Positions 4,695 through 30,243 of a stretch of DNA of 64,000 nt are shown piece by piece. The stretch lies in the IMG/VR virus record IMGVR_UViG_3300027917_000045, one strand, 5' to 3'. Source of the stretch: an uncultured virus (IMG/VR IMGVR_UViG_3300027917_000045) (taxonomy: Duplodnaviria; Heunggongvirae; Uroviricota; Caudoviricetes). Within the stretch, counting starts at the first letter, position 1, and every line of letters starts with the position of its first letter. The translations under genes and the position numbers were made by a program. The notes beneath the pieces are model-generated. The model was not told where the DNA came from. It saw nothing but the letters and a program-made list of their open reading frames with translations, and ran no database searches.

Positions 4695-7600
4695 ATGTCT
4701 AACGGTCAAGATGACCGTGGGGATAATACCCTACGGCCCTACCCTAATATCAACCTATCCGCAGCTGAGATCATAGCCCTCGAAGGTGAGAGACTAAGGC
4801 GTGAGGGTGAAGAGCCTACTGACACCGAGGGCGAGGGTAAAGAGAAGCTTAGCGGTAAAGCCCTTGAGTACAGGCACCAAGCAAACAGGTTCTTGCAAGC
4901 CTTTGTTGATGCCCACGAAACTATCAACCCTACAGGTAGAGCCGTCCGTAGGTATAAAGGTGTGGTTCCTGTCATCAAGAAGGGTGGTATCTTGTCTACC
5001 ACAGGGCCGATGCCAGCCATTACCGGAGCCTTCAATGCTACCATCGGTAACTTGTTTGGTTGGGAGATAGAACCAGAGCAGGTCACGCTCTCGCCAGATG
5101 AGGTTATCAACGCTGTCGGTGGTTTGGTCAATAAGCTATTCGGCCTCATCGGTATCGGTACAGATGTAGAGATCATTGGTGGCCCAGTCCCCAAGGACCC
5201 ACATGTATGGAATATCACTGATCCTCGTATCATTCCGCAGAGAGAGCTGACACCAGAAGAGAAACAGATCCGTTACATCAACAGGCTTGCCGCAGCTATC
5301 AGCTCCGGCGCACAGACCCTAGGTAACGTCGAGATGGATGTGGTCTCTGGTGAACTAGCTCCTCCTCTAGACAACACTGAGAAAATCCTTGATATGGTGG
5401 GTGGTGAGATTCCCTTGATCCTCGCTACTGTCGGTCTGGCCGGTCCTATGCAGAAAGTTGCAGGTAGAGCTGTTACAGGAATGCTGGGTGCTGAGTCTAT
5501 CGCTGCCAAAGGTGAGGCGATGATCGGTAAACAACTTGCCCGTGCTGGCTCACGAGGTAGAGTGCTCAACACCATCATGCAGGGACGGAGGTTTACTGGT
5601 CTAGCTGAGACTGAGGCTGGAGTCGAATTGCTCAAGGCTCGTGCCGGTGAGGCGTATGTTAAACAGATGGGTCAATGGTTGGGGTTGGACTTCCCTATCA
5701 CAGTCGGTTTTGCTGCCTCTGAGATACTGGGCGAAGACACGCTACACAGAATCACAGAAGGTCATGGTATTCCTGCCTCTGATGCACTGAAGACTATGGC
5801 CTTGTTCGGTGCCTTTGGCGCTGGTTTTGGTCTGGCCTTCCGTCCCGGCTCACCGCGACATCTAGCTCGTTTTGCTACTGAACTGTCGTCTGAAATCAGT
5901 GCGGGCTCTTTCAGGAATGTACCTAAAGGGTTCCGTATGGCTGGCAGAGTGTTCGAGGGAACTAGCCCCAAGGGTACTCCTATGTGGAGATGGCAGAAAG
6001 GCGTCGAGGTTGGTGGTAAGAAGGTAGGCGGGAAGAAAGCTCCTTCTCCCGCCGTGGAAGAGATCGGTGCATACTTCGATGATCTATTCAACCGCGCCTC
6101 TACTGCTTACAAGACAGGCACAGAAGAGGCAGTACAGGAAGCCACGGAGAAGAGTGCTAGTTACAAACAGGTGTTAGAACAGTTCGATTCAGAGGCCAAC
6201 GCCATCCATTTCTCTGCTGCCAAGTACGCTACCACAGCTAGGAATAATTTCTTACGGCCCGCATCGCCTCATAAAAGAGTACCGTGGGAAGAGGTAGATG
6301 CTCGTATCAATGATCTGCATAATATCTATGCAGACCAGCGCCTACCTATCGGTGAAAGAACCGAAGCTATGGGAGAGATCATCGCTTTACGTAAGGCATA
6401 CAATATGCCGTATGAAGAGATGGCTAACGGCATCCCTCTCAGTGCAGAAGAAGCTGCTTACCGTTATGTAGTCAATGAGAACAATCCTACACAGTTGGCG
6501 AAGATAGCTGACGGGTTGGCTTCCAGCGACCCTGTAGTTGCCGCTCGTATCAGGCAGTTTCTTGCTGAGGGCTTTCCTGAGACTGAGACTAAAGCCGTTG
6601 CTGCTAGGTTGAAGAAGAGTGTAGGTCTAAACAGTAGAGGTGTCTCTCGTGACGTGGGGTATCTATGGGATGCAGAAGGTAATCGCATGGTACCTATCAC
6701 TGACTCTAAGTTTGGTATGGTTCGGGCTAGGGTAGTCTCTGGTCCTAAAGAAGGCAAGATCGTATCGGTTAATCTCAACGAGGTAAGCATTGAGCCACCC
6801 GCTGGACATACAGTTACATTGAAAGACAGGGAGGGGTTCTTCATAGCAGAGAGTATGCCTGCTGGAAAGAACACGGCTGTCGTTCGTAATATGAACAACC
6901 CTGATGAGGTCTTCGAGATTCCTTACTCTGCAATAGAGGAGATAAGTCCTCCTCCTACTAGTAACCCAATCGCTGAAGCGCAGATGGAATCGCAGGCTAA
7001 GATGGTCATGGAAGCATCTGAAACTGCTCCCGTACCTGCACAGGAAGTATCATTAAGAGGTGAGCCTGTTGAGTTAGTTGAGGCTGGTAGTGCTACTGCT
7101 AAAGTAAAGACTAAGAGAGGTCAGGAGACTGTACCTCTCGAAGACGTGAAGCGGTCTACCCGCAACAAGCCCAAGACCAAAGCGCAGAACGAGCAGGACA
7201 TGGGCAGGACCGATGTTGGTTCTGAGGTGGTTGACTTCGTTCCAGCTACACGTCCTGACACTAACCACCGTATTCTGTTTACTGTCATGCCTAACGAGGA
7301 AGCAGCTACATTCAGAGCCGCATGGGAGGCCGGTGATGTAGAGGCAGTCAAGACTCTTATGGCCAAGTGGAACGCTCACGTAGTCCCGCCTATGGGTCTG
7401 CGTGATGACTGGAAGATGTTTGGCATCGAGATTCCTTCTGCTGAACTGAATAGCAAGATGTACACCAAGAAGGCCAGAGCTATGCTTGCCAAGTTGAATG
7501 ACGCAGAAGGTAAAATTGACTGGCAAGGTAAACTTGGTTCTCCTGTCAACATCGGTGAGAATGCAGAGAACGTGTATCGTACTGGCAAGCTGTACGACAT

Positions 7601-10600
7601 CACCTATGATATGTGGGGCAAGACTGTCCGTAACACGTTGGATGTAAACACGATGGACCCAGCCGTGCAGACAGAGTATCTACGCAAGACCTTGGACATG
7701 TCAGAGAGCCTACATACCCCCCTTGAAAAGCAGGCCACTGCTGTACGTGGCGCTAAGAAAGCCAAACGTGCATCTCGCAAGAATGACCAACGAGCACAGG
7801 AACGTACAGCTCGCAGGATGGAACACGCTGCCGAGGAGAACTACCATAGAGAGAGAGCCGCTATTGCTGCTGATGAGGTTGAAGAGGTACAGAACCGTAT
7901 CCTCTCTGACCTTGAGGTTGAAGAGGCTAGATTCGATGCTCTTGCTGCTGAGGGTATTGGGGTTGAAGCTGAAGGTGCTGCTATCGTCGCAAGAACTAGA
8001 AAGCCGGGACCTCCACCTACTGCTGCTGAAATAGAGCAGGCAAGAGCAGATATGCTCACCGCTCAGGGTATCGGAGTGGAAGCTGAGGCTCCTATCGCCG
8101 GTACTGGTAGAGCACGTAGAGCTGCTATTGAACGTGTCGAGAAGGAAGAGAGTTGGGCTGATTGGGGTGACATCATCAAGTCTCAGGGAGTAGATGACAA
8201 CCCAATGGTTCTCCTACATGAGGATACAGTAGAGCGTCTGTTCATACACCGTGCTAGTAGGAACACCTTCCGTACAGAGTTGGTAGGTGAGAGTGGTAAT
8301 GTACTCTCTACCAAAGAGATGGACCTAACTGGTTTGATCGACTTCGCTCAGGGTAGAGGATTCAAGCCTACCTTATTCCGTACTGACAAGACTAGCGGGC
8401 TGTGGGTACATACTACACAGAGTGGTAGAGCAAACAGGACTACAGCTACGATTACTGAGGTTGATGGTGGTTTCAAGGCACAACAAGTAGAGACCATTGA
8501 AGTTCCCCGTGCTGTAAAGGTGCCACCTAGCGGAGAGATAGTCCCTGTCAAAGAGACGAGGATAGCTCAACATACTCTATCTAGAGAAGGTGTGGAGGTT
8601 GTAGGTGCCAATAAAGCTGGTGACAGGTACTTTGTTCGTGTACGTGATCCAGCGGTGAGAAATAAGTTTGCTACCCCTAGTGAGGGATTGCAGCTATTGA
8701 AGCGTGGTGGCCCTACCAAGGCTAGGGTAGCTCGTGACAAGCTGAGCGTGCCTGTCGAGGAGTTTGAGCCCGGGGTGCCTAGAGAAGGATTCCTCCGTAC
8801 AGAAGGTAGGCTACAGATAGTTGAGGGTCCGTTGCAGGGCATGACTCCCGAGGTTAAAGCTCAGCAACTTCGTGTGTTCACCACCGGAGAGTTGCTACCA
8901 GCCGGTACAGTGGTACAGAGAGAGGTTGGTGGTGCTGTGTTCCAGACAAGAGAGGCTGCCGAGAAGTGGCTTGTCAAAGAGGGATTCAAGTACGAGAAGG
9001 GTCCATACATGGTCCGTCAGCGTGAGTCTTCGTATGGTAGGCAGTGGACTGATGACCTTGAGGGTTGGTGGGAAGACCTGCCGATCGCCTTCAAAGACCC
9101 TGCTGTACTTAGTGACAAGATGGCTCTCAGGGCTATGTTGAAAGACAACGAGAACTCATTTACTGAGCTACTGCGTGGGTATATATGGAGAGACGGACGT
9201 ATCCCGCCTGAGTTGTCTGATGACGCTGCTCAATTCGTAGACCTATGGATTAAAGAGTTCGGTGACGTTGACCTGCCGTTCACTGCCGACTTGCGTAGAG
9301 CTATCGGTACACCGGGGATCAAGGACATTGGGCCTGCTTCAATGAGAACCGTAGCTCCAGAGGATGAGTTACAAGACTGGATCGTGGAGACTACTAGCAA
9401 CCTGTTGGAGGCTAACCCTCAATACAAGTGGTTCCAGACTGGTAAGGCTGGAGCTAAGAAGCATGGTGCTACAGCGGCTAGAGTACCTCATCAAGGTACA
9501 TACTATGGCTCTGTTAGGTACGCCAAGACCAACCCCAAGCTTGGCATCCTACGCTCTGCCCGTAAGCACGAGGAAATGTTGGGAGACATCACCGCTGGTA
9601 CAGGTTACCATGCTGCTGCTCCTAACCCTACTTACCCAGATGAGATGGCTTCTAGTCTTATGGGTGGTCAGAGGTTTGGTAGGCTCAAGACAGAAGGTGG
9701 TAGAGCTGTTGAGGTAGTACACTACCCGATGGAGGGTACCGAGGCTGTCGTTCGTATACCGTCTAGTGGCAGGACTAAGACTGTACCTAAGAGCGCATTG
9801 GACGAAGCTGAGTTCGGTATGAAATGGGGTCCCAATATGAAGGGTAGAGCTTTGGCTGTTGAAGGCGCTCCTGCTCGTGAGTTCTTCGAGAGACCTGACC
9901 CTATCGGGTTCGGTGCTGTAGAGGCCAAGATCGGGTTGGAAGGTGTGGAAGATCCAGTTCAGGTGGCAGTTGGTATAGCTAACCACGTTAAGGAGCTAGC
10001 CAAGAACATCAGAGTACGAAAGAACGGCGCTTTCATCACTGACCCCAAGAACACAGATGCTCTGATTGAGGCGTACTCTCGCACTCAAGAGCTGCCTCTA
10101 TTTTGGGACCAGACTACAAAGGCATGGAAACACCCGCTGGAAGTACTCGACGCTTCTATGCCTAAACGCCTACGTAAGCCGCTAAAGATGGCCACATACT
10201 ACCGTGAATTAGCCAAGGCCAAAGAACACCCTCACGCTGAGTTAATAGCTCTGTCTAAAGCTGGTGCTCTCAGCCCACAACAGAGGGAGCTGCTACATGC
10301 GTGGACTAAAGATATGCGGAATATGATAGCCTCTCCGTCCAAGAGGAAGCTGACAGACTACGAGGCTATGCAGTTCCTTATCGAACACGAAGCTATAGAC
10401 CCTGTTGCTACCGCCTACGTCCGTGAGATGAGAGAAGCTGGTGCTATCGGTAAGTGGTTGGATGAGGCAGGTATTGGTAATGATATGCTACTGTGCACCA
10501 GCCCGTGTAAGAGTATCAGATTCTCTCGCTCTAAACTGATCGACATCAACTGGTTCGATAAGTGGATGGGTGTGAGTTGGAAGGTGTTCAATAAACATCC

Positions 10601-13600
10601 AGTGTCAAAGTACTTCGATGATATGGTACGGGAGTTTGCTGATACAGAGCGTAGGGAGTTGATGAACAACCTACAAGTGAGTGCTCTGTTAACTCAGAGA
10701 GGTTATACAACCAAAGACTTACGGACTGTAAAGAAGTTGATACAGAAGCACGGCTTCGATTGGGACGCGGCTGAGGCTGGTGGTGCTAACACCAAGTACC
10801 AAGGAGCTTTCGAGCTGCTCAATACGGAGTTTGACAACAAGCTGAAAAGGATCAAGACGTTCTTGATTAAGCGTGAAGCGGAGCCTATACGGTGGGACCC
10901 AGCAGCCGAGAAGGCTGCGGAGCAGAGGACAGTACTAGAAGCTCAAGGTATAAACTTCGACAAGATAGGCGATGACTTTCTCATCATGCCCGGGCACTCT
11001 AGGCCCGATATAGGCTTCAATCTACCAAAGATGGGTAGACGTAGTGAGGAGAGGATTCACCAGTTCCTCGATATGCAGGAGACTTTTGGTAAGGACATAA
11101 CAAAGGTACCGCAACATGTGAAGGATGAGATTATCGCTCTCGGTGATGACTGGATGCTGGATCAGTGGGATTTCTGGGGACGTTGGGGTAGAGATAACTT
11201 CTGGCCTTTGGTCCACAGTGGACAGTTCGCGGTTGAGTACGAAGGTACTTTGGTGGCATGGACCCAGAGCTATGATGACGCCTTTGCTGCTATTCGTCAC
11301 CTGATCAAGCAGTCCGGTGCGGGGGAGACAATAGGTGAGTACTCTGCTATGGGTAACTGGAACATTAACCTATCTCAGTGGGTGCCAGACGAGATCTATG
11401 CTCGTCACATGAAAGGGAAAGACTTCCAGAAGTTTGCTAAGTTGATGGGCGAACACCTTGAGACTGGTCCCGACGAGATCAGAGCTGTTATTACTAGGCA
11501 GGATAAGCTGCCTCCCGGTATGAAACCCGGGAGTATAGTCCATGCCTTTGAACGTAAGGCTAACCTAGAGCCGCTGTTCGATGACCCCATGACCGAGTAT
11601 CTAGTGTACAGTGCTCGTGTTGAACGTGCTCTATTCAAACAGCGTGTGGGTGAGGCATACGAGAGGGCTGTGGCTGACAAGGCATTTGACCACGCACTCT
11701 CTGCTCGTGCAGAACTGCCTCCACTCCACAGGATGACTAACCTAAAGAAGGCTGTAGGTGAGGCTTACCTACGTGCTATTGGTGAGTACACAGGCGGAGA
11801 CGCCTTTGCTGACGGTGTAGTTGGGTACTTTGAGTGGCTCAGGATCACACCGCAAGAGCTGGCAAGACGCGGTGGTAAGGCTGTAGGTATAGGCACCGAA
11901 GCTGCGTACCCAGAGATGGCTCTAGGTGACATCCTCAATCCAATGAGAGGATCGAAGGTCTTCCAACAGAAGTACCTTGCAAGGAAGAGAGCGTCTGAGG
12001 CAATTGCCTTCCAGTCTAACTTCAGATTGTTTGGCTCGTTATCCTCTGCCTTCGCCAATGCCTCTCAGTTCTGGGTCAACGTACCCAGTGTGTTGGTGAG
12101 AGATGGGCAGTGGGGCATGACTAAGGCTATGCAAGAGTCGATTAAAGCGTACAAGGACGCCAACGAGGTGTTCTTCCGTACAGCATTCAAAGCTGGACCT
12201 AATCTTGAGGCTTCCATCAAGAAGCTACCAGAGGACCTACAGCAGTTTGCTGCGATGGCAGATGAGTTGGGTATCGCTGCCATGCCCGGGAAGCACATGG
12301 TAGGTGCTGACTATGCTGGTATCGGTGACTTGTACAACATGGTACCTAACGCTTTGCTTACTGATACTAAGAGAGACTTGATGTGGAAATGGACCAAAAC
12401 CCTTGGTATGACTCCGTTTAATGGAGCTGAACGCACCAACCGCATGGCTACCATGATCGTGGGTTACCGTAAAGGTTTAGCTCATGGTCTGGATGACAAC
12501 GCAGCCAGACAGTACGCTAAGAACATGGTGCGTGAGACTCAGTTCCAATACGATGAGATCTCCATGCCACTAGGGTTCACGAAACTGGGTCCTGCTGGGC
12601 GTATGCTCTTGCAGTTTAAGCCTTTCGTAGCTAACCAGTTGGGCTTCGAGAAGGACCTAGTGATGAAAGCGTTCATCAATCCAGCTACAGGTAAGGCAGG
12701 GATTGATGCTAAAGCTGTACAAGCTCTAGCTACACACTGGGCTATGTATTCAGTATGGGGTGGTATACGTGGTATAGCCGCCAGCCCTGCTATCGCTGCT
12801 CTGGGCCTGCCTTACTTCCTTATGACAGGTAAGAGACCTGACCAGCTGCTTATGGGTATGTTGAGGAAGAGCAGGAACTCTAAGCGTGAGCCTTGGGAGA
12901 AGTTCACTGATAGCCACAAGGCTCTGTCCAGTGACATTCTTTGGTATGGGTTACCTGCACTTGGTAGGATGTCTCTAGGCAACAGGGTAGGTGTGAGTGG
13001 TCAGGAGTTGATGAACTTCTGGGAGATCCCGGGCATATTCGGTCCTCATGGTTCTATTTTTGCTGACGTTTTCTCGGCCTACAAAGGCTACGCTAGAACT
13101 AAAGGTTCATGGCTGGGAGTAGGTGGCGGTATAGCCGGTGCTGTTGCGCCTTCATTACTACCCTCTGTTGGTGGTGGGTTCGTGAAGAAGGTAATGCCAC
13201 TGGGGCGTGTAGGTGGTGGTTTGCTTGGTGCCAGTGCTGCCACAGGTAAACTCCCCGGCGTTGATCTGTTTCACTACCCTAACCCTTTCTACGAGTTCTT
13301 AGAAAAGGAACCACAAGGTAAGGCTCTGTCACGTAGAGCTGTACCTACACTACTCCGTAACTTTATACGGTCAGTAGAGATAATGAACACTGGAGCAGTA
13401 AGAGATATGGAGTTCCGTCCTAACTATATAACTGCCGACGATAAGACTGAGGCTATGGTTGCTGCGTTGTTCGGTGTGCAGACAGTGAGTGCGGAGGAAC
13501 GTAACGCTGCGCTGGGTCTGTTGTTTAGTGAGGCTGCGTTGTATGACAATACGAAGAAGACGTTGGTAGAACGTATAGCCAGAGCTACAGCGGAGGGAGA

Positions 13601-13772
13601 CAAAGAGGGTGTCGCTGAAGCGTGGCGCTCTGCCCATGAACAAGGCATTGTAATTGGTAACGAAGAGATTAACCGCCAGCTCAAGAACATCCAACAGGAT
13701 GCTGAGCGTACACTACGCCAGAACGTGACATCCGAAATACGGCACCGAGAGTGGCGTAGAGGCGGCATTTGA
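4695..13772 (+). CDS. Giant (3025 aa) internal virion/DNA ejection protein, large polyvalent protein-like
   Basis: Very long ORF at the end of the virion module. C-terminal ...VRETQFQY...LLQFKPF... region resembles podovirus ejection proteins. Confidence 0.6.
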   Translation: MSNGQDDRGDNTLRPYPNINLSAAEIIALEGERLRREGEEPTDTEGEGKEKLSGKALEYRHQANRFLQAFVDAHETINPTGRAVRRYKGVVPVIKKGGILSTTGPMPAITGAFNATIGNLFGWEIEPEQVTLSPDEVINAVGGLVNKLFGLIGIGTDVEIIGGPVPKDPHVWNITDPRIIPQRELTPEEKQIRYINRLAAAISSGAQTLGNVEMDVVSGELAPPLDNTEKILDMVGGEIPLILATVGLAGPMQKVAGRAVTGMLGAESIAAKGEAMIGKQLARAGSRGRVLNTIMQGRRFTGLAETEAGVELLKARAGEAYVKQMGQWLGLDFPITVGFAASEILGEDTLHRITEGHGIPASDALKTMALFGAFGAGFGLAFRPGSPRHLARFATELSSEISAGSFRNVPKGFRMAGRVFEGTSPKGTPMWRWQKGVEVGGKKVGGKKAPSPAVEEIGAYFDDLFNRASTAYKTGTEEAVQEATEKSASYKQVLEQFDSEANAIHFSAAKYATTARNNFLRPASPHKRVPWEEVDARINDLHNIYADQRLPIGERTEAMGEIIALRKAYNMPYEEMANGIPLSAEEAAYRYVVNENNPTQLAKIADGLASSDPVVAARIRQFLAEGFPETETKAVAARLKKSVGLNSRGVSRDVGYLWDAEGNRMVPITDSKFGMVRARVVSGPKEGKIVSVNLNEVSIEPPAGHTVTLKDREGFFIAESMPAGKNTAVVRNMNNPDEVFEIPYSAIEEISPPPTSNPIAEAQMESQAKMVMEASETAPVPAQEVSLRGEPVELVEAGSATAKVKTKRGQETVPLEDVKRSTRNKPKTKAQNEQDMGRTDVGSEVVDFVPATRPDTNHRILFTVMPNEEAATFRAAWEAGDVEAVKTLMAKWNAHVVPPMGLRDDWKMFGIEIPSAELNSKMYTKKARAMLAKLNDAEGKIDWQGKLGSPVNIGENAENVYRTGKLYDITYDMWGKTVRNTLDVNTMDPAVQTEYLRKTLDMSESLHTPLEKQATAVRGAKKAKRASRKNDQRAQERTARRMEHAAEENYHRERAAIAADEVEEVQNRILSDLEVEEARFDALAAEGIGVEAEGAAIVARTRKPGPPPTAAEIEQARADMLTAQGIGVEAEAPIAGTGRARRAAIERVEKEESWADWGDIIKSQGVDDNPMVLLHEDTVERLFIHRASRNTFRTELVGESGNVLSTKEMDLTGLIDFAQGRGFKPTLFRTDKTSGLWVHTTQSGRANRTTATITEVDGGFKAQQVETIEVPRAVKVPPSGEIVPVKETRIAQHTLSREGVEVVGANKAGDRYFVRVRDPAVRNKFATPSEGLQLLKRGGPTKARVARDKLSVPVEEFEPGVPREGFLRTEGRLQIVEGPLQGMTPEVKAQQLRVFTTGELLPAGTVVQREVGGAVFQTREAAEKWLVKEGFKYEKGPYMVRQRESSYGRQWTDDLEGWWEDLPIAFKDPAVLSDKMALRAMLKDNENSFTELLRGYIWRDGRIPPELSDDAAQFVDLWIKEFGDVDLPFTADLRRAIGTPGIKDIGPASMRTVAPEDELQDWIVETTSNLLEANPQYKWFQTGKAGAKKHGATAARVPHQGTYYGSVRYAKTNPKLGILRSARKHEEMLGDITAGTGYHAAAPNPTYPDEMASSLMGGQRFGRLKTEGGRAVEVVHYPMEGTEAVVRIPSSGRTKTVPKSALDEAEFGMKWGPNMKGRALAVEGAPAREFFERPDPIGFGAVEAKIGLEGVEDPVQVAVGIANHVKELAKNIRVRKNGAFITDPKNTDALIEAYSRTQELPLFWDQTTKAWKHPLEVLDASMPKRLRKPLKMATYYRELAKAKEHPHAELIALSKAGALSPQQRELLHAWTKDMRNMIASPSKRKLTDYEAMQFLIEHEAIDPVATAYVREMREAGAIGKWLDEAGIGNDMLLCTSPCKSIRFSRSKLIDINWFDKWMGVSWKVFNKHPVSKYFDDMVREFADTERRELMNNLQVSALLTQRGYTTKDLRTVKKLIQKHGFDWDAAEAGGANTKYQGAFELLNTEFDNKLKRIKTFLIKREAEPIRWDPAAEKAAEQRTVLEAQGINFDKIGDDFLIMPGHSRPDIGFNLPKMGRRSEERIHQFLDMQETFGKDITKVPQHVKDEIIALGDDWMLDQWDFWGRWGRDNFWPLVHSGQFAVEYEGTLVAWTQSYDDAFAAIRHLIKQSGAGETIGEYSAMGNWNINLSQWVPDEIYARHMKGKDFQKFAKLMGEHLETGPDEIRAVITRQDKLPPGMKPGSIVHAFERKANLEPLFDDPMTEYLVYSARVERALFKQRVGEAYERAVADKAFDHALSARAELPPLHRMTNLKKAVGEAYLRAIGEYTGGDAFADGVVGYFEWLRITPQELARRGGKAVGIGTEAAYPEMALGDILNPMRGSKVFQQKYLARKRASEAIAFQSNFRLFGSLSSAFANASQFWVNVPSVLVRDGQWGMTKAMQESIKAYKDANEVFFRTAFKAGPNLEASIKKLPEDLQQFAAMADELGIAAMPGKHMVGADYAGIGDLYNMVPNALLTDTKRDLMWKWTKTLGMTPFNGAERTNRMATMIVGYRKGLAHGLDDNAARQYAKNMVRETQFQYDEISMPLGFTKLGPAGRMLLQFKPFVANQLGFEKDLVMKAFINPATGKAGIDAKAVQALATHWAMYSVWGGIRGIAASPAIAALGLPYFLMTGKRPDQLLMGMLRKSRNSKREPWEKFTDSHKALSSDILWYGLPALGRMSLGNRVGVSGQELMNFWEIPGIFGPHGSIFADVFSAYKGYARTKGSWLGVGGGIAGAVAPSLLPSVGGGFVKKVMPLGRVGGGLLGASAATGKLPGVDLFHYPNPFYEFLEKEPQGKALSRRAVPTLLRNFIRSVEIMNTGAVRDMEFRPNYITADDKTEAMVAALFGVQTVSAEERNAALGLLFSEAALYDNTKKTLVERIARATAEGDKEGVAEAWRSAHEQGIVIGNEEINRQLKNIQQDAERTLRQNVTSEIRHREWRRGGI

Positions 13773-20793: not shown

Positions 20794-22476
20794 ATGATCA
20801 AGGTCGAGCCGGAGATCAACGTACCTGAGCCGGGGAAGGCTATACTCCTAGTCGGCAGGGACCCGGGAGAGGATGAGCTAAAGGTAGGCCGTCCCTTCGT
20901 AGGCCGTGCGGGTGAGGAGTTAGACTATGTATTGGCTGACGCCGGAGTACGCAGGCAGGACGTGAACATAACCAATGTAGTCCCTTGGCGTCCTGCTGCT
21001 AACGACTTCAAGAAGCACAACACTGAACAGGTAGAACAGGGTTTGCGGCAATTGTATCTTTTGATCGACCAGCTCAAACCCACGTTGATCATAGCTATGG
21101 GGAACGAGGCGAGCTATGCTCTCGTCCCCGATTGGCCTACAGGAGGGCGCGGTATCTTCGGCGCTAAGGGGATCAATGACAGGAGAGGTTACTTTTGGGA
21201 GACTGCGTTAGGCAACGTGTTGACCACCCTTCACCCTGCGACGATCACCCGACAGGCCGTTCCGAACCGTGCCCTCATTACCAACGATATGATCAGGGCA
21301 AGGCAGTGGTTGAGAGGTAAGCTACCTCGACATGAAATGCCTGACCCTATCTACATACCGTTATCCTCAGAGAAACAGGTGCAAGCTTTGGCTGGCTCAC
21401 AGTACCTCGCGGCTGACATTGAGACTAGATGGGAGAGCACCGAGCTACTGTGCTGTGGCTTCTGTGGTGACGATATGCAGCCATACGTAGCTAAGTACGG
21501 CAAGGGGTTCAAGATGATGGAGAAGGTATTAACGTCTCCCGTTATCAAGGTCTTCCACAACGGTTGGGGGTTCGACATCCCCTTCCTTCTGTATGACTAC
21601 GACATGGACATGATCGTGGGGTACGAGGAGGACACACAGAACATGTGGCACGCACTGGAACCAGAGCTAGCAGGTAAGGATATACAAGCAGACGAGAAAG
21701 CAGAGAGCAAACTCACTCGCAAGGGACTCGCGTTCCTTGCCACACTATCAGAGCCTTACTCGTACAACATAGAGTGGTGGAAGAACTACCCAGACGACGA
21801 CGATCCAGAGCACAACGAGAAGATGTACGTACTCAACGCCATCGACGCTTACGTAACTAGACTAATAACAGGCCCACTCCTCTCAGCTATAGAGAAAGAA
21901 GGAGTGGAGGATCAGTACCGACTCACGTTCGACACAGGCTACGGTTGTATGATCATGCAGAAGAGAGGCATCGTAATCAACGACAGCGAGAGACGAACAC
22001 GAATCAAGAGACTGGCGATACGTGGTAAGGCACTCATGCAAGAGTCATCACAGGCTGCACTCGACTTCATAGAGAAGAATGAGCTAGACTTTTTCAGGGT
22101 GGACAAACAGTGTAAGTGCTGTGGTGGTGGCAAGATAGCGAGGCAGAGGTGTTGGCGGTGTGCGGGGTTTGAGAAGAAGCCGGGGAAGAAAGACCTGTTG
22201 GAGTTGGCGAGCAAGCACGACAGGTTTGAGGAGCATGACCTCAGTATGTTGAAAAAGGAGCAACTAGAGGAACTAGTTCTTGCTCCTTGTTCTACATGTG
22301 AAGGTAGAGGTAAGAACTCAGTCTATCACTTCAACCCCGGGTCATGGCAGCAGATGCAAGAGTTGTTGTATCACCAACTAGCAACCCCCAAGAGTACTTG
22401 GAAGGGTAAGACTACAACTAATGAACAAGCATTGATGAAGGTGTTACGATGGGCGCAGGGCGGGAAAATTCTGTAG
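20794..22476 (+). CDS. DNA polymerase A, N-terminal part: family-4 UDG-like domain + 3'-5' exonuclease + Cys-rich insert
   Basis: LVGRDPG..E...GRPFVGRAG, ITNVV, MGNEA, TLHPA (UDG); ADIET, FHNG..FD, NAIDA (Exo I-III); FNPGSWQQMQELLY (thumb). Confidence 0.85.
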   Translation: MIKVEPEINVPEPGKAILLVGRDPGEDELKVGRPFVGRAGEELDYVLADAGVRRQDVNITNVVPWRPAANDFKKHNTEQVEQGLRQLYLLIDQLKPTLIIAMGNEASYALVPDWPTGGRGIFGAKGINDRRGYFWETALGNVLTTLHPATITRQAVPNRALITNDMIRARQWLRGKLPRHEMPDPIYIPLSSEKQVQALAGSQYLAADIETRWESTELLCCGFCGDDMQPYVAKYGKGFKMMEKVLTSPVIKVFHNGWGFDIPFLLYDYDMDMIVGYEEDTQNMWHALEPELAGKDIQADEKAESKLTRKGLAFLATLSEPYSYNIEWWKNYPDDDDPEHNEKMYVLNAIDAYVTRLITGPLLSAIEKEGVEDQYRLTFDTGYGCMIMQKRGIVINDSERRTRIKRLAIRGKALMQESSQAALDFIEKNELDFFRVDKQCKCCGGGKIARQRCWRCAGFEKKPGKKDLLELASKHDRFEEHDLSMLKKEQLEELVLAPCSTCEGRGKNSVYHFNPGSWQQMQELLYHQLATPKSTWKGKTTTNEQALMKVLRWAQGGKIL

Positions 22477-23534
22477 GCTTCAAAGGTTTAAGAGAACGTA
22501 AGGCTGTAGCTCGTGCTGTTATTGAGCCCATGTTAGTGGGTAAGCGTGACGGTACTGTGATTGCTGCATACAAGAGAATAGAACCCGGGACTGACGGCAG
22601 GATACATACGCTGCTCAACACTACCGGCACCACAACCATGCGTCTATCTAGTTCAGAGACTATACTGGAAGAGAAGAGCACCAACCTTCAGAACATGGTG
22701 AACAAGATCGCTGCTCTTGATCCACTGTACCGAGTGAGAGACGTATTTGTTCCTGATCCCGGCATGGTATTGGTAGCGGGTGATTACAAACAAGCCGAGG
22801 CTATCACTACAGCGGCGTATATCAGAGACCTAGTGTGGTTGAACAAGATGCTGGAAGGGTTCGACACTCACAAGGAACACGCTATGTACTCGTTCGATAC
22901 TGGTGCGATGGATGCAGTGACAGGAGTGCAACGCAAGACAGCCAAGAACGTAACTTACGCTTCCCTTTACAGAGCCCAAGTACCTACCATTGTCAATACG
23001 ATTAACAGAGACGAACACATCACTAGTATTAGAGTAACTAGACAAGAGGTTGAGAAGATCCGCAACATACTCTTGCAGATGCACCCACTAGAGCAGTGGT
23101 GGCATGACCTAGAACAAGAGATAGTCGAGCAACACGGTGCTGTGCGTAACTGTTTCGGTCAGCGGCGTAAGCTATACGATCCTGACCTAGACTTCAGAGT
23201 GAAGGACGCTGCCTCCTTCAAGTCACAGTCCACGGTAGCATACAAGATGAATCAGAACATCAACCGAGTCATGGATGAGAGGGTAGACCAGCCGGGGAAG
23301 ATAGAGCTGCTGCTTCAGATCCACGACGAGTTGCTGTTCCAGTGCAAACCCGATAGGTTGGACGAACTTCAAGAACGAGTCACTGAGATCATGGAAGTAA
23401 AGTTTGTTGTCGAAGAAACCGAACTGTTCATTCCTGTAGAGTGGAAGATAGGCAAGGCATGGGGCGCAGGGATGATAGAACCAGAGGGTACCGATACCCT
23501 CACAGATATAGCGAGGAGAGAAGGATGGCTATAA
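22449..23534 (+). CDS. DNA polymerase A, C-terminal catalytic part
   Basis: DGRIH, TGTTTMRLSS, NLQN, motif A DYKQAE, motif B RKTAKNVTYASLY, motif C QIHDEL. Confidence 0.9.
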   Translation: MGAGRENSVGFKGLRERKAVARAVIEPMLVGKRDGTVIAAYKRIEPGTDGRIHTLLNTTGTTTMRLSSSETILEEKSTNLQNMVNKIAALDPLYRVRDVFVPDPGMVLVAGDYKQAEAITTAAYIRDLVWLNKMLEGFDTHKEHAMYSFDTGAMDAVTGVQRKTAKNVTYASLYRAQVPTIVNTINRDEHITSIRVTRQEVEKIRNILLQMHPLEQWWHDLEQEIVEQHGAVRNCFGQRRKLYDPDLDFRVKDAASFKSQSTVAYKMNQNINRVMDERVDQPGKIELLLQIHDELLFQCKPDRLDELQERVTEIMEVKFVVEETELFIPVEWKIGKAWGAGMIEPEGTDTLTDIARREGWL

Positions 23535-26684: not shown

Positions 26685-26925
26685 GGCAACGATTCGAGTG
26701 GTAATGGCCCTGAGTGGTGTTGTCTTTAAGTACGAGATCACCGCATCAGATGAACAAAGTTTACAAGCAAAGGCACGGGAACACTGTGCCATGATCGTCG
26801 CAACCGGCTATCGCAACCAGCGGGGCGACACCTATACGCATTGGCCACCGCACCTATTAGCGAAGGTGCAAGCTATCGGCGTTAAGGTGCCGACCGATTA
26901 CCCCGACGAGATTGAAGGCACATGA
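26671..26925 (+). CDS. Small hypothetical protein (MSESKA...)
   Basis: Start within a 19-bp repeat. Confidence 0.55.
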   Translation: MSESKATIRVVMALSGVVFKYEITASDEQSLQAKAREHCAMIVATGYRNQRGDTYTHWPPHLLAKVQAIGVKVPTDYPDEIEGT

Positions 26926-27170
26926 GCGAGAGTAAGGCAGTAGCCGAGTACCGAGAGGCGCTAATGGAACTAGAGTGGGCGGTACGCCGCCATCAGTCGT
27001 CTACTGCCATTGATGATGACGGTCGGGCACGGAATATCGTTGAAGCCGAAGCCCGACTGGACGAGGCCGTTGTGGGGCTTATGGTAGAGTGTGCGTCTTG
27101 GTATGGGCCGATGGACTTAGCGGAGCGTAAAGCCCGATCCCTACTAAGAGGAAAGGAGAAAGGAGAATGA
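26922..27170 (+). CDS. Small hypothetical protein (MSESKA...)
   Basis: ATGA overlap; start within the same 19-bp repeat. Confidence 0.55.
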   Translation: MSESKAVAEYREALMELEWAVRRHQSSTAIDDDGRARNIVEAEARLDEAVVGLMVECASWYGPMDLAERKARSLLRGKEKGE

Positions 27171-27286
27171 GCACACTCGCAATTGTGCTGGCAATAATAA
27201 CGCTTGCGTTCCCTCTCTGGGCTATTAGCGGACACCTATCACGCATAGCCGAACACAAGCGATTTGACAAAACAAACGAACCATGA
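27167..27286 (+). CDS. 39-aa membrane peptide
   Basis: MSTLAIVLAIITLAFPLWAISGHLSRIAEHKRFDKTNEP; AAGGAG SD; ATGA overlap. Confidence 0.5.
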   Translation: MSTLAIVLAIITLAFPLWAISGHLSRIAEHKRFDKTNEP

Positions 27287-27292
27287 TAGGTT
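27264..27292 (+). promoter_or_regulatory. Sigma70-type promoter driving the ncRNA array/Ro60 operon
   Basis: Perfect TTGACA, 17-nt spacer, extended -10 TGn-TAGGTT. Confidence 0.75.
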
Positions 27293-27350
27293 GCGCGTGC
27301 CGTTGAACTCTACCGTTAAGCGGCACACCTCCTTTCGGTTGGGCCAAGAA

Positions 27351-27424
27351 GTAGAGGGCCGGAGTAGATAGGTTATCGTTGATAAGGGATTCAAGCTGAC
27401 TCCTACTACACCCCTAGCCCCTAC
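27351..27424 (+). ncRNA. Y RNA-like element 1 (short insert)
   Basis: GTAG-A-GGGC/GCCCCTAC terminal stem, GGGCCGGA motif, GTAG-A-TAGG/CCTACTAC second stem, AGGTTATCG...ACTCCT junction. Confidence 0.7.
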
Positions 27425-27441
27425 GGCCTATAGAGGGGGAC

Positions 27442-27458
27442 GCTGTTTGAAAACTGAA
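27442..27458 (+). promoter_or_regulatory. rrn-type boxA-like antitermination element
   Basis: GCTGTTTGAAAACTGAA resembles the rRNA operon boxA (GTTCTTTGAAAACT type). Confidence 0.55.
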
Positions 27459-27463
27459 GGTAT

Positions 27464-27595
27464 GTTGGTTGGGACGGAGTGCTTAAGGTTATCGACTATT
27501 AATCGTGTGATATAGGTTCGAGTCCTATCGCTCCTTCGGGAGTGTAGCTCAATGGTAGAGCACAAAACACCTTAGCCGAGACTATTCTAATCAAC
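27464..27595 (+). ncRNA. yrlA: YrlA-type Y RNA (circularly permuted tRNA-like domain on a Ro-binding stem)
   Basis: 11-bp terminal stem GTTGGTTGGGA/TTCTAATCAAC; GCTTAAGG/CCTTAGC stem; T arm ATAGG-TTCGAGT-CCTAT; acceptor stem CGCTCC/GGAGTG closed by TTCG; D arm GCTC-AATGGTA-GAGC. Confidence 0.85.
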
Positions 27596-27603
27596 TTTGT
27601 ATA

Positions 27604-27790
27604 TGGGTGAGTACGGGGGACACTGAGGTTGTTCATCATTAACCTTGACTTATGGAGTAGTGTGAGGACAAAGAATCCAACCAGCTAGTTGGGACAGACC
27701 CTCGATCAAGCAAGACATAGTAACTATACAGCAGTAGTTCCGTTTCACCGTGCATTATCGTACTCAGTGTTAGACAGAGGTACTCACCCA
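27604..27790 (+). ncRNA. Y RNA-like element 3 (187 nt, large non-tRNA insert)
   Basis: Perfect 11-bp TGGGTGAGTAC/GTACTCACCCA, then GACACTGAG/CTCAGTGTT, variant junction AGGTTGTTC; internal stems CTTGA/TCAAG, GAGG/CCTC, CCAAC/GTTGG, AACTA/TAGTT. Confidence 0.65.
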
Positions 27791-27798
27791 AGAAAACT

Positions 27799-27903
27799 AT
27801 CGGGCCGTTGTGACTAGGTTATCGTTAATGGATAACACTTTCTTTTGAACAGAAAACTTGTGGGTTCGAGTCCCACGCCACACCTACCACGCTTTCGCCC
27901 GAT
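27799..27903 (+). ncRNA. Y RNA-like element 4 (normal-order tRNA body)
   Basis: ATCGGGC(C bulge)G/CGCCCGAT; TGTG..TAGG/CCTA.CACG; D arm GTTA-ATGGA-TAAC; TTTCT-TTTGAAC-AGAAA arm; T arm GTGGG-TTCGAGT-CCCAC. Confidence 0.75.
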
Positions 27904-27914
27904 TACATAGAAGA

Positions 27915-27993
27915 GGACGTGGGCCGGAGAGATAAGGTTACCGCTGACGCACAGACATCGACTCCTTATTTCAACCACTTGCCTTTATCGTCC
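27915..27993 (+). ncRNA. Y RNA-like element 5 (short insert)
   Basis: GGACG/CGTCC, GGGC(C bulge)GG/TTGCCT (compare vertebrate Y RNA GGUCCGA/CUUGACU), GAGATAAGG/CCTTATTTC, AGGTTACCG...ACTCCT. Confidence 0.7.
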
Positions 27994-28031
27994 GAAGAGG
28001 AGAGACCTTCACAAGGAGAGGAGTTCTGAAC

Positions 28032-29690
28032 ATGCGTTACCAACAGCACTATTCCACTCGTCACACCCCACAGACCCAGCCCATCCCCGGTAAGAAGATG
28101 GTTGAGATGGAGTCTGGGGGTTTTGCGTATAAGGTAGACAAGTGGACACAGCTGGATCGTTTCCTCATCCTAGGTACGCAGGGTGGAACCTACTATATAG
28201 GGGAGAGGGAGCTCACCGTAAAGAACTGTGATGCAGTAGTGGCCTGTATCAAGGAGGATGGAGTACGTCTGGTCAACAGGGTAGTAGAGGTATCCGATCA
28301 GGGCCTCGCACCCAAGAATGACCCTGCTCTATTCGTCTTGGCTATGGCCTCTGCGTTCGGTGACGAGAAGACTAGAGCGTATGCGTTCGAGGCACTAGAT
28401 CGTGTCGCTCGTATCGGCACCCACCTGTTCCAGTTCTGCGACTTTCGTGAGGCGTTCGCTGGTTGGGGCAGGGGTATGCGCTCTGCTGTATCCAACTGGT
28501 ACACTCGTAAGGAAGAGAGCAGACTGGCTTACCAACTGCTCAAGTACAAGCAGCGTAATGGTTGGAGCCACCGTGATGTGCTACGACTGGCACACCCCAA
28601 GCCTCAGAACGAAACGCAGAATGCCCTGTTCAAGTACACGACTCAGGGTATAGAGAAGATGGAGGTTGAAGAGAGACAGTTCCTACCTAATCAGGTGAAG
28701 GCGTATGAGGAGGTAGCTTACGCCCACCAGAATGATCAGATGAATGTAGAGAGCCTCATTCAGTACATCCAGAGGGACAGGCTCACTCGTGAGATGATCC
28801 CGACTGAGTACCTGAATGATCGCAACGTCATGGCTGCGATGTTGAACGACATGCCCATGCACGCACTGATCAGGAACCTAGGGAACCTGACTCGCATTGG
28901 TGTATTGGCTCCACTGTCTGATAACAGCAAGTACGTAGCAGACAAGCTGGTTGTGGCTGAAGCTATCCACCGCTCTCGACTGCACCCGTTCAGTATCCTT
29001 GCAGCTTCCAGTGTGTATGGACAGGGGCATGGTGCTAGAGGTAGAGGTGAGTGGACCCCTGATCAGCAGATTATGAACGCACTAGAAGCAGCGTTCTACC
29101 TGTCGTTCCAGAACGTGGTGCCTTCTGGTAAGAAGATCGTGTGTGGTATCGACTGGTCCGGTTCTATGGGTGGGCCTCGTAGTTACAGTGGGCGGTACTC
29201 TTACGGTGGGTACGGTATCAACGGTGTCCCCGGTATGAGCCCTGCCTATGGTGCTGCTGCTATGGCACTGATCACCAACGAGACAGAGGATCAGGTGCAT
29301 AACGTGGTGTTCGCAGGCACTATCAAGGACATTAGCCTGCGTAAGGGTATGAAGTTGAGTGAGGTAATGGAACTCACCGCCCGTGGTGTGGGTGAGGGTA
29401 CTGACTGTGCTCTGCCTCTGCGCTATGCCATGTCTTCGGGTATGCCTGCGGTGGATGCGTTCGTGCTTTACACCGACTCTCAATCTTGGCGTGGACCAAA
29501 GCATGTGAGTCAGGTCATAGATATGTACCGTCAGCACTACAGTCACCCGACCAAGCTGGTTGTCGTTCAGATGACGAGCAACGATTACAGTGTGGCTGAT
29601 GCTCAGGATGACCCGCTCAGTCTGAACGTGATCGGGTTCGATACCTCCGCACCTAAGATCATCAGTGACTTTGTTGCTGGGAGGTTCTAA
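28032..29690 (+). CDS. rsr: Ro60/Rsr TROVE + vWA domain RNA-binding protein
   Basis: GGFAYKVDKWTQLDRFLILGTQGGTYY, GWGRGMR, KYKQRNGWSHRDVLRLAHP, ALIRNLG, MIDAS DWSGSM, GTDCALP, YTD, GFD. Confidence 0.95.
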   Translation: MRYQQHYSTRHTPQTQPIPGKKMVEMESGGFAYKVDKWTQLDRFLILGTQGGTYYIGERELTVKNCDAVVACIKEDGVRLVNRVVEVSDQGLAPKNDPALFVLAMASAFGDEKTRAYAFEALDRVARIGTHLFQFCDFREAFAGWGRGMRSAVSNWYTRKEESRLAYQLLKYKQRNGWSHRDVLRLAHPKPQNETQNALFKYTTQGIEKMEVEERQFLPNQVKAYEEVAYAHQNDQMNVESLIQYIQRDRLTREMIPTEYLNDRNVMAAMLNDMPMHALIRNLGNLTRIGVLAPLSDNSKYVADKLVVAEAIHRSRLHPFSILAASSVYGQGHGARGRGEWTPDQQIMNALEAAFYLSFQNVVPSGKKIVCGIDWSGSMGGPRSYSGRYSYGGYGINGVPGMSPAYGAAAMALITNETEDQVHNVVFAGTIKDISLRKGMKLSEVMELTARGVGEGTDCALPLRYAMSSGMPAVDAFVLYTDSQSWRGPKHVSQVIDMYRQHYSHPTKLVVVQMTSNDYSVADAQDDPLSLNVIGFDTSAPKIISDFVAGRF

Positions 29691-30023
29691 ATGCCATACA
29701 TAAACAGAGAAGCTAGGAAGAGATGGGAGAACTCATTGACTAGGATGCAGTATGTGTTCAACGATGAGGGTCCTGTCTATGCAGGAGAACTGAACTATCT
29801 AATTACTAAGATCATTACCTTCTACCTAGAGAAATACGGACTAACCTACGCATCTATTAACAACGTGATGGGAGTTCTCTCTTGTATACCACACGAGATG
29901 TACAATAGGTTGTTCTATCCCTATGAGGTGTACAAGAGACAAGAACACGGGGATGTACTACCCCAGTTCATCGACCTACAAATCAAGGGAAGGGAGAAGC
30001 AAGCCGTTGGATCGCCTGACTAG
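29691..30023 (+). CDS. Conserved phage protein (MPYI...GELNY...; DUF6899-like)
   Basis: MPYI, AGELNYLITKI, PYE..K...GDV pattern. Confidence 0.65.
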   Translation: MPYINREARKRWENSLTRMQYVFNDEGPVYAGELNYLITKIITFYLEKYGLTYASINNVMGVLSCIPHEMYNRLFYPYEVYKRQEHGDVLPQFIDLQIKGREKQAVGSPD

Positions 30024-30243
30024 AGAACAAGACGATCAACTGATCATGGCTGCGGGTGTACGAGTAGGGTGCCCGTGGTTAGACGAGAAGACAGGAGAAC
30101 CAGAGATCTTACTGTTAGTACAGTTGAACGAAGAGGATGGAGTAGAAGACTGGGTGTATTGTGTGTTTGACCCTATAGGTGCAGTAGCATTAGCTAAGAA
30201 AGTGTTGTCCTTTGCTGATCAGATACACAAGAGCATGAACTAA
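29923..30243 (+). CDS. Hypothetical protein (start uncertain)
   Basis: ORF track; true start probably further downstream. Confidence 0.45.
   Translation: MRCTRDKNTGMYYPSSSTYKSREGRSKPLDRLTREQDDQLIMAAGVRVGCPWLDEKTGEPEILLLVQLNEEDGVEDWVYCVFDPIGAVALAKKVLSFADQIHKSMN

Follow-up and report, generated by a model that had tools for sequence, protein, structure and literature searches.

A 187-nt stem-closed element, here termed unit C, lies within a tandem array of Y RNA modules upstream of rsr, the gene for a Ro60 orthologue, in the genome of a tailed phage. It is a real feature of this genome and a divergent orphan module, probably derived from a Y RNA, which has the place and the shape of a Y module and lacks the letters by which Ro is contacted. 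The reading we prefer, to which we give a probability of about 0.42, is that unit C is Y-derived, would be co-transcribed with rsr and excised from the transcript, and would dock on Rsr while its large insert tethers a partner. Unit C is a lead rather than a result and is represented by one sequence.

Y RNAs are thought to be modular: Ro60 is bound by the stem, and the choice of effector falls to a variable module. To our knowledge, only a tRNA-like module and plain hairpins have been described as Y modules in bacteria and phages. Arrays of Y RNAs adjoining rsr have been published by Chen et al. 2014 (PMC4201824) and for the Thermus phage phiLo (PMC12135203); by the former account, several Y RNAs near rsr in bacteria and phages are processed from one precursor, and the latter describes a phage Ro60 that binds two upstream Y-like RNAs, Yrl1 and Yrl2, as well as the host PNPase.

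The array upstream of rsr

The window (the whole stretch of DNA that was analysed, 64,000 nt) belongs to a tailed phage, nearly all of whose genes lie on the + strand. Among their products are a DNA polymerase, an exonuclease, a Sak4-like annealing protein, a terminase, a portal protein and a major head protein. The rsr product, in addition to its Pfam domains (Table 1), matched PHROG 850, annotated as 'RNA-binding protein' (9.2e-65). The gene for a DUF6899 protein (29691-30023) is located directly 3' of rsr, and no relatives of this protein (tblastn, E<=1e-3) or of other neighbouring proteins were detected in the 240 other rsr loci considered below. Elsewhere in the window the DNA polymerase is encoded by two overlapping + strand ORFs (20794-22476 and 22449-23534), whose matches to PHROG 17 follow one another along the profile (positions 469-920 and 928-1233). 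The gene may be split or contain a frameshift, or the assembly may be at fault. A 3,025-aa ORF at 4695-13772 gave no PHROG match at E<=1e-5.

Between a 39-codon ORF (27167-27286) and rsr there is a non-coding gap of 745 bases that contains five tandem stem-closed units, forming an array of RNA modules on the + strand at about 27351-27984, directly upstream of rsr. The canonical Y RNA 5' strand is present in four of the five (A, B, D and E), and these four are ordinary Y RNAs. A fixed-spacing PWM of the 5' strand, applied to both strands of the window, returned units E (20.3), D (19.6) and A (18.8) as its top three matches, the next one scoring 12.3, and a gapped PWM reached 13 or more at just 7 of 127,940 window positions, with all four units passing this threshold (A, 20.8; E, 19.9; D, 19.3; B, 16.4). 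The best match of the scaffold covariance model R2 in the 64-kb window was unit E, and unit A was found by the same model at 27353-27422 (9.9 bits). Unit B matched the YrlA family RF02553 at 27479-27597 with 39 bits (E 9.5e-7), a score that does not reach the gathering score of 69, and its relatives adjoin rsr in at least 15 other loci identified by nhmmer (best E 9e-7). The tRNA-like body of unit D was matched by the Rfam tRNA model with 25.8 bits at 27824-27876.

No promoter-like site was found within 26800-30200. The five-module array would constitute the leader of the phage rsr gene, and we infer that it is transcribed on the + strand together with the surrounding phage genes and cut into single RNAs.

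Several side observations concern the ordinary units. ARAGORN labels 27458-27537 in unit B 'tRNA-Asp' (Asp-atc) and 27807-27885 in unit D 'tRNA-Ser' (Ser-tga); these 'tRNA genes' are the tRNA-like bodies of Y units, which automatic annotation would mislabel. Unit A gave a weak match (22 bits) to the nematode stem-bulge (Y-type) family RF01656. This family was matched by hairpin-type phage modules at L083:1831-1894 (38.5 bits, the family gathering score being 38), at L016:2387-2460 and at about 27350-27424 of the window, and the scaffold letters (GGxCCGRAG...GGUUAUC) are therefore common to phage and animal Y-type RNAs. Upstream of the array, where the non-coding gap begins, 27280-27345 folds as a stable hairpin region (z -1.91); a segment of 27 nt inside it (27303-27329) shows 74% complementarity to the part of unit B around its D arm (27539-27565), a degree of complementarity that may be due to chance.

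Table 1. Positions of rsr, the array modules and the parts of unit C in the window, and of large stem-closed modules in other viral rsr loci (locus:positions).
Feature	Position	Strand	Remarks
Unit A, short hairpin-type Y module	27351-27424	+	canonical 5' strand AGGGCCGGAG...AGGTTATC
Unit B, YrlA-type tRNA-like Y module	27464-27597	+	Rfam RF02553
Unit C, stem-closed element	27604-27790	+	187 nt; largest of the five modules
Unit C, lower stem	27604-27614 with 27780-27790	+	11 bp, 100% complementary; pair probabilities 0.54-1.0
Unit C, internal loop, 5' side	27614-27618	+	CGGGG; stands where canonical CGRAG does
Unit C, upper stem	27619-27627 with 27763-27771	+	pair probabilities 0.62-0.96
Unit C, insert	27628-27762	+	about 135 nt; begins GTTGTTC (canonical modules GTTATC)
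Unit C, inner hairpin 1	27677-27692	+	CCAAC-CAGCUA-GUUGG; pair probabilities 0.66-0.69
Unit C, inner hairpin 2	27722-27739	+	AACUAU-ACAGCA-GUAGUU; pair probabilities 0.82-0.95
Unit C, 3' strands	27763-27790	+	upper stem 27763-27771, loop 27772-27779, lower stem 27780-27790
Unit C, internal loop, 3' side	27772-27780	+	AGACAGAG(G); faces CGGGG
Unit D, Y stem with tRNA-like body	27799-27903	+	normal arm order; R2 12.4 bits
Unit E, hairpin-type Y module	27921-27984	+	R2 24.1 bits, E 6.7e-4
rsr, Ro60 orthologue	28032-29690	+	552 aa; Pfam TROVE 8.8e-49, vWA_Ro60 4.2e-37
L016 family member	L015:146-307		
L016 family member	L016:2215-2378		
L016 family member	L017:1064-1231		
L016 family member	L022:2081-2244		
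L016 family member	L024:543-703		
L016 family member	L025:393-557		
L016 family member	L026:27-187		
L016 family member	L027:2213-2377		
L016 family member	L032:2199-2362		
L016 family member	L035:2216-2379		
Y-type module, non-tRNA insert	L038:1877-2032		156 nt; stem-closed
Y-type module, non-tRNA insert	L039:1573-1783		211 nt; stem-closed
Y-type module, non-tRNA insert	L009:2057-2231 (= L091)		175 nt; stem-closed

Unit C and the Y scaffold

Unit C is the longest unit of the array, as the original prediction had it, and is separated by spacers of 6 nt from unit B and 8 nt from unit D; it ends about 240 nt upstream of the rsr start, on the + strand like rsr. It had been credited with perfect closing stems of 11 and 9 bp, which is accurate for the lower stem, while the upper one consists of 8 perfect pairs (27620-27627 with 27763-27770) and the pair G27619-U27771. 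Between the stems lies an internal loop of 5x9 (or 4x8) nucleotides whose 5' side begins with CG. Closing stems of this strength are not expected by chance: a scan of the sequences flanking rsr in 161 loci gave 14 nested stems of at least 20 bp with a CG-type junction, versus 0.67 in shuffles, an enrichment of about 20-fold obtained with criteria that were tightened after a looser set had given 583 versus 290 in shuffles. The whole element folds with -53.9 kcal/mol (z -1.46) on the + strand and with -47.9 kcal/mol (z -0.45) on the - strand.

For comparison, 25 aligned Rsr proteins served as the query to gather rsr loci, 80 each from viral contigs, metagenomes and genomes (Rsr 37-51% identical). 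Some of these are one contig filed twice, and the number of independent lineages is therefore below 240. Of 241 loci (the 240 and the window), 211 had one or more canonical Y 5' strands and 174 had at least two, duplicate contigs included. An alignment of 34 hairpin-type modules from the other rsr loci (A3) served as the source of the scaffold reference, with the consensus nnCGGGC-CGAAG-N7-8-GGGTTATC ... AACTT-GTCCGnn. The A3 scaffold covaries strongly, with 86% of cells paired versus 63.8% after shuffling and changes on both sides in 159 cells versus 62.9 (none of 500 shuffles as high in either measure), and the three pairs of an AAG/CUU mini-helix are possible in 31, 26 and 22 of the 34 modules.

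In shape, unit C agrees with this reference. Its loop sizes and the length of its upper stem are those of the A3 consensus, and it shares with the 34 hairpin-type modules the lower stem, the asymmetric loop that begins with CG, an upper stem of 8-9 bp and the GGUU (GGTT in DNA) at the top of that stem. Like the hairpin-type Y RNAs described by Chen et al. 2014 (PMC4201824), namely YrlB of Salmonella and M. smegmatis and Yrn2 of D. radiodurans, it adjoins rsr on the same strand in a tandem array. Two general features of Y RNAs are thus present in unit C, a location on the strand of rsr and no more than about 2 kb from it, and a stem that pairs the ends and is interrupted by a loop.

In letters, unit C departs from the reference. 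It reads GAGUA-CGGGG-GACACUGA-GGUUGUUC, so that CGGGG and GGUUGUUC stand against the CGRAG and GGUUAUC of hairpin-type Y RNAs, and 135 nt against their loop of 10-30 nt. The Ro-binding 5' strand (GGGY-CGRAG-N7-9-GGTTATC) is absent from unit C, which has UACGGGGG...GGTTGTTC instead, and compared with the motif GNCGAAN0-1G as worded in PMC4201824, UACGGGGG shows three deviations, versus one in units A, B and E and two in unit D. The gapped PWM gave unit C a score of -6.4, equalled or exceeded at 2,884 of 127,940 window positions, against 16.4-20.8 for its neighbours, and the best score with the fixed-spacing PWM was -11.8 (rank 1,742). Unit C lacks both a GGGY ahead of the CG and an ACUU in its 3' strand, so that the AAG/CUU mini-helix cannot form; in the purine-purine loop, GGG lies opposite AGAG, with which it cannot pair. 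The R2 model, which matched units E, D and A, did not match unit C; unit B and all of four large canonical modules escaped it as well, so that it is blind to modules with large inserts. CGGGG is tolerated elsewhere, in an otherwise canonical module at L092:664-723 (PWM 18.4), and the combination of scaffold changes in unit C is unique among the modules examined. The divergent junction AGGTTGTTC singled out by the original prediction is present at 27626-27634, in a scaffold that is far more divergent than was stated there, and the designation 'Y-like' holds for place and shape, not for the Ro-binding letters. Since the conserved contact letters are gone, binding of unit C by Rsr is doubtful.

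Unit C had also been called unrecognised, and the Rfam search proposed at the time bears this out: Rfam 15, whose families include 6S, tmRNA, SRP, RNase P and riboswitches, gave no match to unit C at gathering scores in the window and none at E<=10 in 26900-28200. YrlA (RF02553) is likewise an rsr neighbour and carries a large module (about 85-135 nt) on a Y-type stem, but it possesses a T arm, a D arm and an acceptor-like hairpin, none of which is found in unit C. Neither RF02553 nor RF00005 matched 27604-27790 at E<=10, ARAGORN made no call there and GTTCRA does not occur in the insert, in line with the expectation that this part has no T-loop or D-loop motif. As with Yrl1 and Yrl2 of phiLo (PMC12135203) and Yrn1 of D. 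radiodurans, which are reported to bind Ro60 and, together with it, the host PNPase, unit C is encoded upstream of the Ro60 gene; what led to the identification of those RNAs, by their published description, was a CGAA motif in the internal bulge, and this motif is absent from unit C.

The missing Ro-contact letters, which all four neighbours keep, and the absence of an Rfam match would also be expected if unit C were a separate non-coding RNA in the rsr leader and not a ligand of the Y-binding site of Rsr, either with a partner of its own or as a substrate or decoy for the Rsr machinery, and closed by a generic double stem. Arrays at other rsr genes do carry passengers, for example true tRNAs (L009, L038 and L039). 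However, the stem geometry, the CG and the GGTT all fit the Y scaffold, a coincidence that we put at roughly 1e-3 to 1e-4 by estimate rather than computation, and no homologue was found in the 240 rsr loci that would mark a family of such RNAs. We regard a separate RNA as unlikely, while taking it as the foremost alternative to a Y-derived module.

The insert and the search for relatives

The insert had been described as a structured domain of about 135 nt with three nested helices, a description that folding analysis did not support. On its own, the insert folds with -22.8 kcal/mol compared to a shuffle mean of -25.5 (z +0.92), and 159 of 200 shuffles fold as well, in a test of limited power in which the tRNA-like unit D likewise gives z +0.19. 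The words of the two outer helices, CTTGA/TCAAG and GAGG/CCTC, are present, with pair probabilities of about 0.001 and 0.07; imposing the proposed helices gives a fold of -47.0 kcal/mol, about 7 worse than the unconstrained -53.9, and nested Watson-Crick helices of 5, 4 and 5 bp occur in 127 of 200 insert shuffles. On account of the helix probabilities, the forced fold and the shuffles, a structured domain is without thermodynamic support. What stands of the proposed structure is the innermost helix CCAAC/GTTGG (27677-27681 with 27688-27692) and the separate hairpin AACTA/TAGTT (27722-27726 with 27735-27739), both at the probabilities given in Table 1, together with the A-richness of the insert (31% A versus 26% in the window). 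The single sequence offers no mark of a structured domain in the insert, which does not in itself prove the absence of structure.

Three further candidates were examined and rejected. The direct repeats GGGGGACRCTG/GTTGGGACRGA are of a kind (10 of 11 matching) of which about 1.5 are expected by chance according to our estimate; the best antisense target in the window comprised 13 nt (E 0.14); and CsrA-type GGA motifs numbered three, versus about 1.8 expected (hand count).

An insert that folds no better than its shuffles, nested helices at chance level and a divergent Ro-binding strand are features that a decaying or neutral Y module might show, in which the insert would be unselected filler and the element would have no function of its own; that no relatives of unit C were found points the same way. 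Against such a relic, all 20 closing pairs are intact, one of them as G-U, which is unexpected for a decaying element, and the spacing to the neighbours is as tight as that between working modules. Phage genomes, moreover, seldom retain 190 nt of filler. Neutral decay is in our view improbable.

The homologue collection suggested with the original prediction was carried out over the 240 rsr loci and yielded no diverged homologue of unit C. Neither unit C nor its insert was found by blastn-short in the 80 viral rsr loci or by nhmmer (no match at E<=10 in 160 loci and none at E<=100 in all 240, 1.24 Mb), the positive control being unit B, matched in at least 15 loci. A single-sequence covariance model of unit C (R1), run on the window and the 240 loci, found unit C alone (241.9 bits), followed by a 49-nt stem with 17.1 bits (E 0.038). 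Degenerate DNA patterns of unit C had no match in viral contigs, and gave 0 and 2 matches in genome contigs; the two are taken as chance matches because about 4 are expected (estimate) and R1 matches neither site. The phage itself is similarly isolated. No DNA match to the stretch was found in the phage collection, in which 357 records encode Ro-like proteins (best identity among the matches listed, 37.9%); a search with the single Rsr protein found no related loci in viral or in metagenome contigs, and one with the DNA polymerase found no relatives in viral contigs. The closest Rsr relative (P0002, 56% identity) lies outside the 240 loci searched. The other copies of unit C are letter-identical and come from an IMG/VR record (G001) and from contigs of three marine-sediment DNA runs in two studies, which show no difference from the stretch within the parts covered; one of these runs may be where the present DNA comes from. 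Among the sequencing runs that contain the stretch, no RNA run is listed.

Alternatively, the 11-bp and 9-bp helices with the asymmetric loop between them could be a processing or stabilising signal, for example of the RNase III type (two helices of roughly 10 bp around an internal loop), that sets the modules upstream of it apart from those downstream and from the rsr mRNA, the enclosed part being incidental. In this respect unit C would resemble the processing stems of phages and rRNA, and the array, in a region with no promoter-like site, must be cut. Yet every Y module has such a stem, which is the Ro-binding element there, the other modules manage without an extra site, and a 135-nt interior is not needed for a pure processing site, so that we hold a dedicated processing stem to be quite improbable.

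Least probable of all is an element that acts as DNA or as coding sequence (a miniature inverted-repeat element with the inverted repeats as its termini, a protein-binding inverted repeat, or a small ORF, two of which, at 27639-27791 on the - strand with 50 aa and at 27689-27817 on the + strand with 42 aa, overlap unit C), given that the element occurs once in the 64-kb window (<=3 mismatches; no second copy above chance by blastn-short) and is absent from the 240 other loci, that its flanks (TATA and AGAA) show no target-site duplication, that neither ORF has a PHROG match, and that the G-U in the stem and several G-U pairs in the inner helices fit an RNA from the + strand.

Large modules in other viral arrays and a possible role for unit C

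Large Y-type modules with non-tRNA inserts were also identified in other viral rsr arrays, in the L016 family and in L038, L039 and L009 (Table 1). Overall they measure 150-210 nt, with nested closing stems of 8-10 and 8-10 bp and inserts of 110-164 nt. The L016 family comprises ten loci from related viral contigs, in which a module of 161-168 nt with stems of 10 and 9 bp lies upstream of rsr; its 5' strand is near-canonical (GGGTCGGAG...GATTACC), and its non-tRNA insert of 112-119 nt hardly varies outside a single hairpin, which is variable and shows a compensatory change. Also present in the L009 array are two hairpin Y modules, a tRNA and a YrlA-type unit. Rfam gave no match at E<=0.1 to the large modules of L016, L038 and L039, and no description of large non-tRNA Y-type modules in viral rsr arrays was found in a literature search.

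Unit C resembles these modules in size class, nested stems, a non-tRNA insert and the lack of an Rfam match, and they occupy the same slot of the array, beside hairpin and YrlA-type units. In contrast to unit C, they keep the canonical 5' strand fully or partly (gapped PWM 24.2 for the L016 family, 18.4 for L038, 12.6 for L039 and 10.5 for L009). The inserts are unrelated to each other and have no detectable similarity to unit C in sequence or by model. With a different insert in each lineage, the large module therefore seems to be a recurrent slot in phage arrays that is filled differently from lineage to lineage.

In the preferred reading, that of a Y-derived module working with Rsr, unit C would fold in the manner of a Y RNA, with a lower stem of 10-11 bp, an asymmetric loop beginning with CG and an upper stem of 8-9 bp topped by GGUU, and would present a loosely folded, A-rich insert of 135 nt with two stable hairpins where other modules have a tRNA mimic or a small loop. 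On the model of Yrn1 from Deinococcus and of Yrl1 and Yrl2 from phiLo, the stem would dock on the ring of the phage Rsr. The insert could then tether a different partner from that of the tRNA-like neighbours, for example a host exoribonuclease that binds single-stranded RNA, again on that model, and the original proposal of a new effector-binding RNA domain is a reasonable guess. More speculatively, and with low confidence, viral rsr arrays may harbour an undescribed class of Y-type RNAs of 150-210 nt, each with a lineage-specific non-tRNA domain that recruits host factors beyond those that tRNA mimics reach; unit C would be the extreme case, with a changed loop (CGGGG/AGACAGAGG) that would confer a different mode of Rsr binding or a different partner.

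Should Rsr fail to bind it, unit C would be an orphan phage RNA. If it is a working partner of Rsr, further kinds of large, lineage-specific module occur on the Y-type scaffolds of phages, a conclusion also suggested by the large modules in the other viral arrays, and phages may redirect host RNA-decay enzymes to more than one class of targets.
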